DNA of 64,000 nt. Source: Eledone cirrhosa (lineage: Eukaryota). Of the stretch, positions 8,451-49,144 are shown one piece after another; the stretch's first letter is position 1, and every line of letters begins with the position of its first letter. The stretch covers positions 147,126,001 to 147,190,000 of the forward strand of contig OZ024743.1 in assembly GCA_964016885.1 (NCBI GenBank). Reading direction: 5' to 3'. The position numbers and the translations under genes are program-made. The notes under the pieces are model-generated. The model saw only the letters and a list, made by a program, of their open reading frames with translations, made no database searches and was not told where the DNA came from.

Positions 8451-8575
8451 TATGGATGATGATCGCTTATCGAAGAAGTGCAAAGAAACCCCACTCGAAG
8501 GAAGCCGCAATATTGCCTCATATTGCCTCATATTGCTGACGCCAAAAATCCGTCCAAACATGCCAGCATGGAAAA

Positions 8576-8673
<98 letters not shown>

Positions 8674-8681
8674 TATATACA

Positions 8682-9230
8682 TATAGCACCACACCCAACT
8701 TCGCAAAAAACATCACCTCCTCAAACAACAAGAAACTCAACTCCTACGGAAGAAACAACTTAGACATTAGTGGAGAGCCGACCAGGAGGTGTAACTGCCC
8801 TGATAGATCTACGTGCCCCCTCAACAACAGATGCAGAGAACCTAACGTGATCTACCAATGCAACGTGAGGACGGAAAACTCCAAAAAAGTCTATATAGGA
8901 TTAACCATCTATGACTTTAAGACCCGGCTCTACCAACACCGACATACGTTCAGTAACCCGGCCCAGCGACATGTCACTACACTTTCGGGCCACATCTGGG
9001 ACCTCCAAGATAATAACATAACATACCATCTTACTTGGAGCTTACTCTCCAGGGCTAACTCCTACACGGGAGGACGCCGTCCGTGTAACTTATGCTCGGA
9101 GGAAATGATACAAATGCTGTTTACGAAAGACCAACTCCTAAATAAAAAAGACGAACTTGTAACCGCATGTAAACACCGATTGCGTAGGATTTACCTTGCC
9201 TTCAAACCTCCTCACGACCCGGGTGGGTAG
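8682..9230 (+). CDS. Penelope-like element GIY-YIG endonuclease, 5'-truncated, Naiad-type Cys pattern
   Basis: CNCPDRSTCPLNNRC linker, NVIYQC...VYIGLT, FKTRLYQH, LSGHIW, CNLCSEE, LLNKKDEL..ACKH; the ORF portion upstream of 8682 is only (TA)n read-through. Confidence 0.92.
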   Translation, partial: YSTTPNFAKNITSSNNKKLNSYGRNNLDISGEPTRRCNCPDRSTCPLNNRCREPNVIYQCNVRTENSKKVYIGLTIYDFKTRLYQHRHTFSNPAQRHVTTLSGHIWDLQDNNITYHLTWSLLSRANSYTGGRRPCNLCSEEMIQMLFTKDQLLNKKDELVTACKHRLRRIYLAFKPPHDPGG

Positions 9231-9806
9231 ACAATGTCTGTAACATCTTTCTTTTCCCCACTTGCTTTACAAGATAGAGGAAACCCCAGCACACATAGTT
9301 AGATGTAATACTTTTCTTTTTTTCCCCTTTATCTCTTCTTCTCACTTCCTTCCACCCCCTCTCCTCTTCCTTTTCCTTTTTCCTCTTTCGTTTACCCTGA
9401 GGCAGCTTATGGGGCTTTTGTAGCCTCAGTACCCCCACCCCCCTGAATTCTATATTGCATTGGCTGAAAACGCAACACCAGCTAAAAATATAGCAACTGT
9501 TTTAGGCTGTAGTTTTTTTTAAATTTTATAATTTCCCATTTTCAGATTCCTGGATAATTCTATTTTCGCTTGCTTTCTAGCTAGCCTACTTCATCCACAC
9601 TCCTTATAATTTGCTGTATAGAATTTACTTTTAACGCTTGACTTGCTTCACCCACTCCCTCATTGTTCTACAGGCAAGTTCCGCCACCCCCACCCCTACC
9701 CGCCTCCATTAACGATTTAACTGTGTTTACAAGACATTTCGACCAATCCTTTTGATAACTACAACCTTCAGAAATGCCTGATTATCGCATGCCCATATAT
9801 GGAATT

Positions 9807-9901
9807 ACACCTTGAAGAGTTCGGCTAGATCATTACCATGTTAAAAATTTAATTTAGTCCAGAAATAGACATCGAAATGGCTTGAGCTCTGCCGTCGGGG
9901 T
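9807..9901 (+). ncRNA. hammerhead ribozyme family A, decayed copy at the 3' end of the PLE
   Basis: ACACC-TTGAAGA-stem II-GAAA-TGGC(TTGAGCTCT)GCCG-TC-GGGGT. Confidence 0.6.
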
Positions 9902-9934
9902 CCTGAACCTTTTCCTATATATATATATATATAT

Positions 9935-10260
9935 AGGAAAAGTATGACCCCGACGGCAGAGCTCAAGCCGTTTCGACGGCTATTTCTGGACAAAAGTAAG
10001 AGTGTTTTTAGTCTGATAAATAAATAGCCGAACTTTTCAAGGGGTACTCCCTTATATGGGAAGATTGTAGTTGTCAAGAGCATTGGTCAAAATTTGTAGC
10101 AGACACAGAAAAGTCTATCATGGCAGTGGGGGTGGAGGTGGCTGAACTTGCTTGTAGAACAATAGGGGAGTGGGTAGAGCCGATCAAGCGTTGAAGGTGA
10201 AATCTACACGGCAAATTCTCAAGAAAGTGTAAGAAAGTAGGCCAGGGGAGGTAGGCGAAA
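9935..10260 (-). mobile_element. diverged PLE family A 3' region, tail-to-tail with the preceding copy
   Basis: Reverse complement aligns with about 9580-9915 (CCCACTCCC..ATTGTTCTACA.GCAAGTTC.GCCACC). Confidence 0.8.
9947..10045 (-). ncRNA. hammerhead ribozyme family A (U3-A8 core, long stem II)
   Basis: ACCCC-UUGAAAA-G UU CGGCUAUUU..AAAUAGCCG U C-GAAA-CGGC loop GCCG-UC-GGGGU. Confidence 0.75.
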
Positions 10261-16819: not shown

Positions 16820-16977
16820 GAAGGAGCTTCTACAGCATTGAGCTTCCTGAAGATTTCATCTGAATGAAACAGTACTAGTCCTGTAGAAGCTCCTTCTATA
16901 AAATAAAAAAATTTTACTCTGCCATCTATTGAGTACCTTACTTACTGTGGTTATCCCCGACTCAACCCGGGACCTAC

Positions 16978-28009: not shown

Positions 28010-28622
28010 TATCCTAGACTTAATAATTAAGTAATTAATTTAATTAGACAACTCTGTTGATTGGTTAATTATTTGTGTTTGTTTAATAACGTCTGGTTGA
28101 GAGCTTTTATTCGGAATGTTGAGCGGAAATATTTTTTCCTTTGAATTTACTCGCGGAAATATTTTTTCCTTTGAATTTACTCGCCAAAAACCGGGGATTG
28201 CTTCCCTTGTTCGAAATAACACGTGACAACGAAATGTTTGAAGGCTATCTATTGTGGCGGTCGCATTTAGTTTGTTCACACCAGTTTGAGGCAATTAAAC
28301 GGAATGCCTGTTGATGAAATGAATCCCCTGGTCGATCATGGAATACCACAATCTTACGTGTTACGTAAGTTGGATAGATGATTTCGGATTCATAGAAACA
28401 TATCGGACGTATTGCAGAATATCGTCCGATCTGTCCAGGTCTGTTTTAACCTGATTAGTTCTTTCGTTGTTTTGGTATTGTATGGTTGGGTTTTGCCTGC
28501 CGCAATTTTCAATTTGTCAAGCTATTTAAACGTAATGTTATTGAGTGCTTTGCTACTCATTCCTTATTGTAGGTCGACTTTGCTTGGCCACAGCCAAAGC
28601 TTCGATTTTACTAAGCTTCCAT
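28010..28622 (+). mobile_element. family F non-coding monomer with extended hammerhead (28306-28440)
   Basis: Homologous over its full length to 33081-33690; HHR fold with UUGAUGA core. Confidence 0.8.
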
Positions 28623-33080: not shown

Positions 33081-34005
33081 TAATTGGAGGCTTAGTAAAA
33101 TCGAATCTTTGGTGGTGTGCAAGCAAATTCGACCTACGATATGAATGAGTTAGCAAAGCACTCGACAAGGGTAGGTCCTTAGAGTAATAACATACGTTTA
33201 AATAGCTTGACAAATTGAACATTCTGGCAGGCAACATCTAACACACAATACCAAAGTAACGAAAGAACTAACAGGTTGAAAAAATACACCTGGACAAATC
33301 AAACGTTATACGTTTAAAGAGTTTCTATGAAACCGAAATCAAATATCAGACTTACGTAACTGGCAATCTCGTGGTATTCGTGATCGAACAGAGGACTCAT
33401 TTCATCAACATGAATTTCGTTCTACCAAAGAACGGGGCGAATACTAAATGGTGCTGCTAGCAGCAGCGATTCGAAAATTTAGTTGTCACGTGTTATTTCC
33501 AACAAGGGAAATAACCCCGGTTTTTGGCGGGTCATTCAAATTGTTATATACAGGAAATATTATAATTTCCGCTAACATTCAGAATAAGCTCTCAACCAGA
33601 TGTTATTAAACAAACACAAATAATTAACCAATCAACAGAATTGTCTAATTCAATTAATTAGGTAATTATTAAATCTAGGAGAAAATAATATAATTGGAGG
33701 CTTAGTAAAATCGAATCTTTAGCGGTGTGCAAGCAAATTCGATCTACGATATGAATGTGTGTGGTCCTTAGAGTAATAACATACGTTTAAATAGCTTGAC
33801 AAATTGAACATTGTGGCAGGCAAAATCTAACACACAATACCAAAGTAACGAAAGAACTAACAGGTTGAAAAAAATACACCTGGACAAATCAAACGTTATA
33901 CGTTTAAAGTGTTTCTATGAAACCGAAATCAATTATCAGACTTACGTAATTGGCAATCTCGTGGTATTCATGATCGAACAGAGGACTCATTTCATCAACA
34001 GGAAT
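33081..34005 (-). mobile_element. family F tandem (about 1.5 units) with two hammerheads
   Basis: TAATTGGAGGCTTAGTAAAATCG at 33081 and 33691; HHR at 33288-33412 and 33878-34002. Confidence 0.85.
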
Positions 34006-34864
34006 TATATATACATATATATATATATGTAAAAGCGTTTATGTATATTTTTTTGTGTGTTTGTGCTTGTTTGTATGTTTGTAGTCTATATTTCATTACC
34101 GACAGTTTTTTTCACAAATTCATCTCACTTTTGTTAATTTGTTTTGGAATAATATATATCGTAACCCCACAATTCACGCTCGTGGATGATATCACTCCTC
34201 ATTTCTGCCTCTTAATATTATACAGTAATATTATACGTTTGTGTAAGGCATTTGATGGTCTATTTCATGGGGATTTTGATGACCCTTTATCACTTCTATT
34301 ATTAGTATATATTTGGTTCTAACTATACATTTTAGTTGTGTTTTGTGTATTGTTAATAGGTGTAGTGTCTCGTGTAATTCTTGTGTTCTATTTGTAATGG
34401 TAATATTCTGTTTTGTTGTTAGAATGTTTAATGTTGACAAGCAATTATTAACTTGTCTGGGATTCATTACCTGGCACATTCTTCTCTGGGGAGTATCTAA
34501 AGACTATTCTAAATTGATATTTTACTACTGACACATTATACCTATTTGGACATTTGCTGTACACAGTTAAGTATGCTCCCTTTTCTGAGTATTTGGTGTA
34601 CAAGGACATATGCATCTGTTATTTCCTTTCTGAATATTTATGTCTAGAAATGGGGTTAATATATTCATAGGAGATTTATTTGTATCGTTCTGGAACTGGA
34701 TGTTTAAGACGAAGTTATTTTCTTGTCTGTTTTTTAATGCTATCACGTTTTCCGGTGTGCTTATTACGACGAATATATTGTGTATTTACTACGCATAGGT
34801 GCTACTTTGTTTTATATTGTGACCACAATGTACACATGGCTACTCGCTTTTTTTAACAGCTGAG

Positions 34865-46084: not shown

Positions 46085-46480
46085 GATACATACATACATA
46101 CATGGTGGCTGCCAACTCGTTTTCGAGTACGGCCACTACTTTATATCCATGTAGGAGAACCCCTACCGATGCCCTGAACGAGTGTGACTTTTTAGTCCAG
46201 CCAGCAACTTGAAAACTCTGGTACAAACACTACACTGTGACAATTATTGACACATAGTGCTGGGCCCATGGTATCATGTGATGACAAGTGCAGAGAGATC
46301 GCCAGATATAAAGCAATGCCTGTGCCGTGAAGCTTTTATAGTGAGCAAAGGCACTGCACAAAGCCAGTCCCACTCTCTTAACCAAGATGATATTTACCAA
46401 AAAGAAGAACAAGTCAACATCATTGGATACCATCAGGGTTGCAGGTGTTATATCAGAGTTTTCCTTCTAGAATTCTGCCA
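46085..46480 (-). pseudogene. RTE-like LINE 3' end with C2H2 finger and (TGTA)n tail
   Basis: QCSVCTRVFKLLAGLKSHTRSGHR-stop, short UTR, microsatellite tail. Confidence 0.65.
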
Positions 46481-46540
46481 TACATACATACATACATACA
46501 TACATACATACATACTTACATACATACTTACATACATACA

Positions 46541-47240
46541 TGAGGATTGCTACAGATATCTGGGGATAGATGAGAACATATCCGATAATGGTATCTGTAA
46601 TAAGGAACGCATAACCAGGGAATACTACACCCGATTAAGAAAGATATGGTCATCGGAACTCTCTGCGCAAAACAAAATAGTGGCTCACAATGTGTTTGCT
46701 GTGCCTGTCCTAACACCAACGTTTGGAATACTCAATTGGGCGATAGACGAAATCCGAGCAGTTGATGTTGGAACTCGAAAAATACTGAACAACACTGGAA
46801 ACTTCCACATCAACAGTGACATAGACCGCCTTTACTTGAAACGTAAGCAGGGAGGCTGAGGCCTAACATCAGTCCAGACAGCATTTGAATGTCGCATCAT
46901 ATCTCTCCGACAACATCTACGAAGCGTAGGAGCCCGTCTCTCAAGCAAGACTATCTGCATGAAATAGATAAGATCATGAGAGTTGGGAAGGAACTCCTCG
47001 AGAGATATTCCGTGTGATAATCAAAAACTCACACCCAGGGAAATCGCTCAGCAGTATCGCAGTGAATCCATGGATGAAAAACTGCATACTTATTAGCAAA
47101 AAATCATGCATGGATATGTTGCCAGGAAGCTCCAGAGTGAGAGTAATATAGATAAGGAAAGTAGTCTATCTTGGACCAACAACCGCTATATTGGCTCCCA
47201 CTTTGAAGGATACGCTTTTGCAATCCAAGAACAGGAAACA
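46541..47240 (+). pseudogene. R4/Dong-clade non-LTR retrotransposon RT thumb fragment
   Basis: YRYLGI...SELSAQNKIVAHNVFAVPVL..TFGILNW...SDIDRLYLKRKQGG*GL...SHFEGYAFAIQEQE. Confidence 0.85.
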
Positions 47241-47269: not shown

Positions 47270-49144
47270 CTCAACACAGATGGAGAAGCCCTCAATTGTG
47301 GTAGAAAACTATGATTATGAAGATACGAGGTTCAGTTTGGTAACAATTGAGTCGTTCCTTACAATCCTTTGCTCTGCAAAATCCTTGATGCTCACATCAA
47401 TTGTGAGTACAGCGCATCAGTAAAATCCATTAACTAACAGGGAGATATATTTCTAGCCATGAAGCCATATGGATAATCTTTGGTTTTGACATACACAATA
47501 GACACCCAGTGGTAGTGAACCTTGCAGACCACTTGAAAATGGTCAGAGGGTATATTACACCGAAGAAAAAGCACAATTGATTGCTGCATCTCCTCCAGAC
47601 ACAACGCTCATTGCTTTATCATGAGGTTCCCACATTCTACGCATGGAATAAAAAAGAAATGGAGCAGACGAAAGATAGGCAATCATGTGGATGGCTATCA
47701 AAACATCAAAGCAAGCGGTACAATAGAAAGTGTTTACGGTCCATCCAAAACACAGGGAATACTTTCATTTGAGGTCAATCTTTCACATTGTTAGAGGGCC
47801 AACATCATTCGAAAATATCAAAATTGTACATGGAACTCCGTGTGCAACGTATGCTGAAGCATGTAAATTACTTGGCCTACTTGAAAACGGGGAATATTGG
47901 AATAAGACATTGGAAGTGGCAGCTGCCACACGAATGCCTAAAAAGCTTTGACAGCTCTTCACTGTAATGCTCACTACGTACAATATTTCAGATCCCTTGA
48001 GTCTCTGGGAAAGCTATAGGAAAGACTTGTCGGAAGATATAGCACAGGATCAAACTTCAAAACACTGGCATTAATGAAGAACTTTTAGAAATTAACAACT
48101 ACCTGAGTGAAATTGACTGGTGCTTTAAGGATTGCGGTTTACCAGAACCTGAGGATACAGTTGCATACTCTATTGCCTCAAAGTATCAACTATATGGCAA
48201 CAAGTCCAGCGATTACTCTTGAGGACAAACATGATGCAGAAATCAATACTTTTGCAAAACCGCTAATTAAACTGGGTGATGGAAATATGCAACAAGATGA
48301 AAATGGATAAGTCAACCTTCCATTTGGAAATGTCTGTAATGCAACAAATGAACTAATTGATCAAGTATTTCCAAATGTTGCCTCAAATTATATCAATAAA
48401 TTGTGGATGTTTCAGAGAGCAATTTTAGCGCCAAAATATAATAGGGTAAATCAATCAGATCAAGCAATGCGTACTGGATACCCTACCATGGGAGGTTCAT
48501 ACATATGTCTTCATTAGCAAGATTGAAAATTATGACGAAGCTGTTAATTATCCTGCATTCCTTAATAGTCTGGAAATTCCTGGACTTTGTCCACACAAAT
48601 TAACGCTAAAAATTGTAACTCCCATCATCCTTTTGAGAAACCTGGACCCACCACGTCTATGCAATGGCACGCGCTTTACCGTAAGGCAGAGAATGAAATA
48701 TCTCCTAGAGGTAACAATTCTTGGAGGCAATGATCAAGACAAAAATGCATCAATTCCAAAGATTCCACTTATCCCTTCCTCTACCGAGCTACCATTCAAA
48801 TTCTCTAGACTTCAATTCCCTGTTAAAGCCAGTTTTACGATGACCATAAATAAAGCTTAGGGTTAGAGTCTCAAAGTCGTAGGATTGAATCTGCTAGAAT
48901 CAGTTTTTACCCTTGGACATTTATATGTTGGTTGTTCACGAGAGGGAACATCTAGAAATCTTCATATACTATGCATGAACGGTAAAACAAAGAATCTGGA
49001 AATATTTTGACTTTTTTCTCACACACATATCATTGTCTCGCCTCATACTGTAAATCAGACAACGCATCCAGTACAGTCATTTCCTCTTCTACCTGTCTTC
49101 TCTTATCAACTTTTCACCCGTGCGAAGCCAGGTAACTCATCTAG
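47270..49144 (+). mobile_element. decayed, internally deleted Helitron (Rep-helicase remnants and 3' end)
   Basis: VVPYNPLLCKILDAHINCE, VRGPTSFE..TYAEACKLLGLL, RNLDPPRLCNGTR, RLQFPVKASFTMTINKA, LYVGCSR; terminal GC-rich hairpin and CTAG|T at 49141-49145. Confidence 0.92.

Follow-up and report, generated by a model that had tools for sequence, protein, structure and literature searches.

A long-armed type I hammerhead with a U3.G8 core, and a likely leader-arm pseudoknot, in a probable Penelope-like repeat of Eledone cirrhosa

Nucleotides 28306-28440 of the window (the whole 64,000-nt stretch of Eledone cirrhosa DNA that was analysed, to which coordinates refer unless a locus is named) fold as a type I hammerhead, their three helices meeting at a junction in the order of that type. 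The Watson-Crick 3-8 pair expected of a type I hammerhead is absent, U3 lying opposite G8, and stem II is drawn out into a very long arm. An active hammerhead is held to require a C3-G8 pair, and standard searches discard candidates with an altered core or with mismatches beside it (Perreault 2011, PMC3088659).

All parts of the fold lie on the + strand. Stem I is formed by GCCUG (28306-28310), of which CCUG is the family part, and CAGGU (28436-28440). The core UUGAUGA (28311-28317) supplies U3 U4 G5 A6 U7 G8 A9, and the stem II arm (28318-28394) begins with an A10.1.A11.1 mismatch (A 28318 and A 28394), followed by an 8-bp stem, AUGAAUCC (28319-28326) with GGAUUCAU (28386-28393), that encloses 59 nt in the window copy and leads to an internal loop, an inner helix and a terminal hairpin. 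GAAAC (28395-28399) opens the segment 28395-28435, which comprises G12 A13 A14 A15.1, a long stem III, U16.1 and C17; the GUC site is at 28433-28435 and cleavage is predicted between 28435 and 28436. The 3' strand of stem I is followed by ACCUG (28436-28453 together), which can form a competing hairpin. Of the core, U4 G5 A6 N7 A9 G12 A13 A14, A15.1-U16.1 and H17 are all present. These stems, core, A.A mismatch and GUC site had been listed in the original prediction and all lie where it placed them, except that its five-pair stem I describes the window copy rather than the family, since the fifth pair, G.U, occurs in only 25 of 106 copies and the family stem I is 4 bp long. The paired 10.1-11.1 position at the base of stem II is also absent from the family (A.A in 59 and C.A in 34 of 98 rows; 10.1 is A or C and 11.1 is A in 96 of the 98); a U.U mismatch at this position is tolerated in known hammerheads (PMC8557442, PMC7229834).

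The minimum free energy (MFE) structure of a 145-nt piece is the three-way junction (z -2.06; 5 of 200 shuffles were equally good), and a strict descriptor of the motif matched the window once, at the 28306 site, and none of 60 Markov-simulated windows. Rfam covariance models gave no match for 28250-28500 at E up to 10, and over the whole window microsatellite-driven miRNA matches alone were seen among the matches listed (150 of 294); large-arm hammerheads are thus a class that Rfam misses. Two further UUGAUGA cores had been counted as copies of the same motif. They are present, on the minus strand (33408-33402 and 33998-33992), and both are damaged: the first belongs to a full unit of subfamily B (33085-33690, -) whose hammerhead (33412-33289) has a broken stem I, the second to a 5'-truncated upstream partial unit of the same tandem (33690-34006, -; hammerhead 34002-33879). 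Both carry a private G>U in stem II, the two form one partial tandem, and neither folds as a hammerhead by MFE or passes the strict descriptor.

What the original prediction missed is the retroelement setting, as the hammerhead sits within a non-coding repeat. In the window one mini-element unit of about 615 nt, of subfamily A, occupies 28012-28622 (+) and then runs into (TA)n; BLAST of the region and of 60 genome loci gave a unit length of 612-627 nt, and copies of four groups diverge from their subfamily majority by a median of 3-5%, those of a fifth, mixed group by 10%. Upstream of the hammerhead the segment 28123-28225 (+) carries E2F-like motifs (GCGGAAAT, CGCCAAAA) and an E-box (CACGTG), and is a possible internal promoter. 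The window copy also has a private 30-bp tandem duplication in this region (28114-28184), which doubles a GCGGAAAT motif. Downstream, at 28540-28550 (+), lies a ATTGAGTGCTT motif that resembles one situated past the 3' end of the hammerhead of an intact Hydra-clade element described below; 55 of 99 rows match its strict pattern, and we infer it to be a candidate signal for recognition by reverse transcriptase (RT).

The 3' end of the unit is fixed and its 5' ends are scattered. An intact 3' end was found at 87 of 99 loci and was followed in 80 of the 87 by a microsatellite, nearly always (TA)n; head-to-tail partial tandems were present at 34 of the 99 loci, an inverted piece at five, and nine of the 99 insertions read beyond the cleavage site of the upstream unit. 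There was no significant pile-up of 5' ends at the cleavage site, where four insertions start 3-15 nt past it (by a rough hand estimate). The fixed 3' end, (TA)n and tandems are insertion marks of Penelope-like elements (PLEs) as described in Craig 2021 (PMC8557442), and the pattern fits internal initiation of reverse transcription (PMC11167929). On these sequence marks the repeat is likely to move as a non-autonomous PLE of the retrozyme type.

The RT that copies it probably belongs to the Hydra clade, a link drawn from target site, architecture and a short motif. An intact element was reached from a PLE fragment at 8463-9230 of the window; it is arranged in 3,531-bp tandems, and its intact 784-codon frame contains the DKT and CxCX5C motifs, which are marks of the Hydra clade (Craig 2021, PMC8557442). 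At its locus (L137, G000:C1:437200000-437209999) the 3,531-bp units are near-identical, with many equal-scoring copies genome-wide, so that the element appears to be very young, and its 3' end lies at either of two sites, some 20 and 100 nt past its hammerhead. BLAST of the unit against this element, from the sole autonomous family examined, gave no match, and at the loci checked the unit has no Hydra-like ORF beside it in sense orientation; PLE fragments in the flanks of unit copies look like separate insertions into the same TA tracts. Several families pile into these tracts, and the flanks of four loci (L005, L012, L013 and L027) hold another (TA)n-linked repeat end, with a minimal C3 hammerhead and a palindromic stem III. 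The window fragment itself is part of a 5'-truncated Hydra-clade PLE (8463-9933, +, with 9916-10069, -) that retains the GIY-YIG end of the ORF and two back-to-back long-arm hammerheads; on the plus strand the core is UUGAAGA, perhaps a private U3.G8 state, and on the minus strand it is UUGAAAA.

The U3.G8 core is not peculiar to the window copy. A wide pattern that asked for no more than stem I, a Y-U-G-A-N-R-A core, GAAAC and GUH found at least 1,637 matches in the genome and none in its reversed control, as was the case for the reversed controls of the genome patterns generally; matches were exact, so that all counts are lower bounds, and the stem-I/core patterns together give about 1,650 copies. 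U3.G8 accounts for at least 452 matches (by sub-pattern) and U3-A8 for about 1,142 copies (by subtraction). N7 takes all four bases, while position 8 is kept purine, with about 1,594 purines vs 14 pyrimidines among U3 copies, the 14 being scattered over subfamilies. A non-U residue at position 3 was found in 50 matches (44 C3 and six purines, counted by eye and including a few unrelated sequences); C3.A8 is represented by one lineage of 16 near-identical copies and C3-G8 within the family by about seven scattered ones (also counted by eye). The C3.A8 lineage (L206:697-817, -, and 15 more places) is compact, with a shortened stem III, and has nonetheless amplified. With the same anchors there were 180 U3 vs 2 C3 family copies, the remaining four C3 matches coming from a sister family, so that U3 is the consensus and the C3 consensus against which the original prediction had staked itself was not found.

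Position 8 has changed between A and G at least seven times on a 99-row tree, six of the changes being forced by well-supported branches (rows were picked for diversity and several were gappy, position 8 was left in the alignment and no root was inferred). The wider family was sampled through 60 regions from the first 100 matches listed and 30 loci from a clade-L pattern. G8 occurs in three multi-copy groups, and one A8 group is nested inside the G8 group of the window copy. The distant clades are 66-75% identical to the window family, and their representatives share its unit layout and junction region. As U3-A8 dominates and A and G switch while U3 stays fixed, the wobble is best read as derived from U3-A8: U3.G8 is most likely a recurring state that arose from this known variant and not from C3-G8. 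The wobble that had been predicted is thus real; what does not hold is its description as a stand-alone departure from C3-G8.

Is the fold under selection? In stem III, where compensatory changes had been predicted, one pair is A-U in 71 and G-C in 29 of 106 copies, and the next is A-U in 59, G.U in 15 and G-C in 26; the covariation is real but represents a few inherited lineage events, not independent copies. When 52 diverged copies were aligned with MAFFT, the proposed structure was paired in 83.5% of cells, vs 27-43% in slid controls, and there were 149 double-change cells, vs 76 in shuffles that ignore relatedness. Double changes fell in 21 of 40 pairs, a pair count equalled by 73 of 500 shuffles, and both sides had changed in four of five stem II base pairs and in all seven distal pairs of stem III. 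Stem I and the core were imposed by the search pattern and carry no weight in this test (in alignment A2 the pattern itself fixed stem I, GAAAC and GUH, which are invariant for that reason). Stems II and III therefore covary across diverged subfamilies, in line with the structural selection that had been proposed. Within the narrow family 0 of 13 core columns vs 14 of 44 flank columns carry a lineage variant, a comparison in which the core was partly used for copy selection.

A possible role for the arm comes from a second pair of conserved motifs, GAAC about 10 nt 5' of stem I and GUUC within the internal loop of the arm. The leader strand (28296-28301, +) is AGAACR in the family and TAAACG, damaged, in the window copy; the arm-loop strand (28329-28334, +) is YGUUCG in the family and TGGTCG here, the window copy having private changes in both strands. 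Of all the registers tested the two are mutually best partners (minimum 0.73 and mean 0.91 paired; next best minima 0.62 and 0.47). Once four of the 99 rows had been set aside because their leaders are truncated, canonical pairing at the four central positions was seen in 88-91 of the remaining 95; these pairs are mostly invariant, and in clade E one of them is G.U in 12 of 21 rows. Of the flanking pairs, the inner takes the form G.U, A-U or G-C according to clade and is broken in clade I (G.A or G.G, 7 of 8), and the outer is G-C in 16 of the 19 rows of clade L and A.G in 60 of the 76 rows outside it; outside clade L a private G>C in the arm occurs in six copies, none of which carries the leader G. 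On this moderate evidence the leader-arm pairing is likely to be a pseudoknot, with one lineage-level double change. A pseudoknot of similar kind stabilises about 40% of hammerheads (Perreault 2011, PMC3088659).

The suggestion that the arm is a stabilising insert thus gains a structural role through the likely pseudoknot, but the insertion is not peculiar to this family. The hammerhead of the intact Hydra-clade element has a 54-59 nt arm and is U3-A8 in 30 of 33 parsed rows (18 of 51 rows were unparsed), with no leader pairing seen; the sister family (L062:1490-1660 and L140-L169), a C3-G8 long-arm hammerhead, has an arm of 76-79 nt, is C3-G8 in 31 of 32 rows and combines a minimal stem III with the same stem II base as the window family (A.A, AUGA/UCAU). 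Since both are long-armed, long arms are a shared trait of these elements in this genome. In the sister family the 5' start of helix I falls on a pyrimidine tract that ends in CAG, the position at which such a tract and CAG are reportedly found in the Penelope intron of Drosophila virilis, and inverted PLE fragments lie beside some copies.

Working against the fold is the downstream ACCUG, able to pair with the 3' strand of stem I; 50 of 95 rows carry this ACCUG, and clades E and H lack it. In a model that leaves pseudoknots aside, the computed probability of stem I fell when 3' flank was included, being at most 0.25 in 7 of 8 copies with 30 nt and at most 0.1 in 8 of 8 with 60 nt. In clade E copies (e.g. 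L221 and L226) a (TA)n tract has grown within the unit directly 3' of stem I, where other clades carry the competing ACCUG.

The reading that we favour, with moderate confidence, is that this is a type I hammerhead in a repeat likely to be of PLE type, which would cut slowly after 28435 with its arm docked on the leader by a short pseudoknot. Transcripts of tandem copies would be cut at the hammerheads to unit-length RNA, possibly circularised as has been proposed for retrozymes (PMC7229834), and a Hydra-type enzyme would begin reverse transcription at a fixed site about 185 nt downstream and run more than once round the unit. The pseudoknot would replace the usual contact between loops I and II, so that a weak Y3.R8 pair (U-A, U.G or even C.A) becomes tolerable, and the competing hairpin would leave only a brief period during transcription for cutting. 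Mutants of the core region in a type III hammerhead, single or double, all had low activity apart from a C-G to G-C swap (PMC9901934), and by analogy U3.G8 cleavage may be slow, perhaps nearly dead. The amplification of the 16-copy C3.A8 lineage indicates that a good 3-8 pair is not needed for spread, and the purine kept at position 8 while N7 varies counts for retained, though predicted, catalysis.

The same low activity of core mutants and the same amplified C3.A8 lineage could also mean that the U3.G8 lineages no longer cut, the fold being kept for folding or for the binding of RT or an RNA-binding protein and the repeat having spread from uncut tandem transcripts. We consider this unlikely. 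It would accommodate the competing hairpin and the weakness of PLE hammerheads in vitro (PMC4209133), and also the insertions that pass the upstream cleavage site, although such read-through is compatible with a circular template too. It fits less well with a purine at position 8 beside a free N7, as catalysis would require, or with a core that lacks lineage variants where the flanks have them (in the narrow family, for a partly selected core).

More improbable still is that U3.G8 is a nearly neutral transient, cleavage being reduced but sufficient in all Y3.R8 states and the arm having no special rescuing role. Such neutrality would account for the seven A/G switches, which run both ways and include a nested return to A8 inside the G8 lineage, and for long arms that accompany a canonical C3-G8 pair or occur in an element where no leader pairing was seen. 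However, the leader and arm-loop motifs are conserved islands, each other's best partner, across subfamilies only 66-75% alike, and C3-G8, a single transition away from U3.G8, is confined to the few scattered copies noted above.

That the arm carries a splice donor, as a retained intron, or a SECIS-like signal is very improbable. A SECIS has a UGAN/NGAN core, an 11-12 bp helix, an apical AA and an upstream selenoprotein ORF; by eye against this consensus the arm has no AA at 11-12 nt from the core and no in-frame-UGA gene attached, and this identity was rejected. A perfect GTAAGT lies in the arm at 80 of 99 narrow-family loci, with an acceptor-like tract at the unit junction, and 5' introns near the hammerhead are frequent in PLEs (PMC4209133), but GTAAGT is found in only 31 of 99 wider-family rows, nearly all in two sister clades, and the junction AG of clade E has no preceding pyrimidine. 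Four contig sets of unrecorded kind, compared with a tandem copy and with the intact element, showed no GT..AG joint at the donor among the matches listed, a result that says little either way.

Several published systems lie close to this one. Hydra-clade PLE hammerheads (Craig et al. 2021, PMC8557442) are likewise of type I, with a (TA)n target and a fixed 3' end shortly downstream, and many have a non-Watson-Crick 10.1/11.1; the Hydra motifs listed there are all C3-G8, their loop 2 being 3-10 nt long and their stem III short and palindromic, whereas the window family has U3 with A8 or G8, an arm of about 75 nt, a long stem III and no ORF. The minimal hammerheads of the Cercyon PLEs of Schistosoma (Cervera and De la Pena 2014, PMC4209133) share U3-A8 in PLE-linked repeats, a long helix II and a short helix I, but lack helix III and act as dimers. 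Natural U3-A8 variants are known (Perreault 2011, PMC3088659); in the available text of these last two papers no U3.G8 or C3.A8 lineage is reported, and both are present here. Animal non-LTR retrozymes (Cervera and de la Pena 2020, PMC7229834; Li et al. 2026, 10.64898/2026.07.22.740005) are non-coding head-to-tail units with a type I hammerhead, 51-972 bp long, a range that includes the unit of about 615 nt, and are proposed to move by PLE RT via circular RNA; the window family differs in its mostly dispersed (TA)n insertions of 1-2 units in place of arrays and in its non-canonical core. Pseudoknot-stabilised hammerheads (PMC3088659, as above) use a short helix from stem II to the strand flanking stem I in place of a loop-loop contact, as in the predicted pairing here; in this animal retroelement, however, the pairing strand would belong to an internal loop that sits above 8 bp of stem in a 75-nt arm.

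The literature already describes hammerheads in PLE repeats, retrozymes, U3-A8 cores and pseudoknot contacts; what is likely to be new is the pairing of an internal loop of the arm with a GAAC leader before stem I. A literature search, with subscription papers mostly outside its range along with some core-variant supplements and kinetics, found no report of this family, of its type of arm or of a natural multi-copy U3.G8 or C3.A8 lineage. It is possible, though the balance is somewhat against it, that the superfamily forms a natural hammerhead class that cuts without a Watson-Crick 3-8 pair, in which the leader-arm pseudoknot would hold the fold, lineages would run on U3.G8 and C3.A8 with position 8 as a rate dial, and the downstream hairpin would gate cutting during transcription. 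The roughly 1,650 copies are a natural U3-A8 / U3.G8 / C3.A8 series on one scaffold, with a ladder of subfamilies. Such a series lets one test whether a peripheral pseudoknot offsets a weak core pair and how much catalysis a Penelope-type element needs, a need called unclear in Craig 2021 (PMC8557442). If the wobble copies do not cut, they are an ordinary decayed motif in a known element type.

Elsewhere in the window a loose scan picked up a short conventional hammerhead candidate at 16841-16891 (+), with a CUGAAGA core and a 6-bp stem I, and a further CUGAUGA candidate with weak stems at 27321-27275 (-). Open frames at 46251-46859 and 48450-48860 (+) are presumably fragments of a non-LTR retrotransposon and a Helitron helicase.
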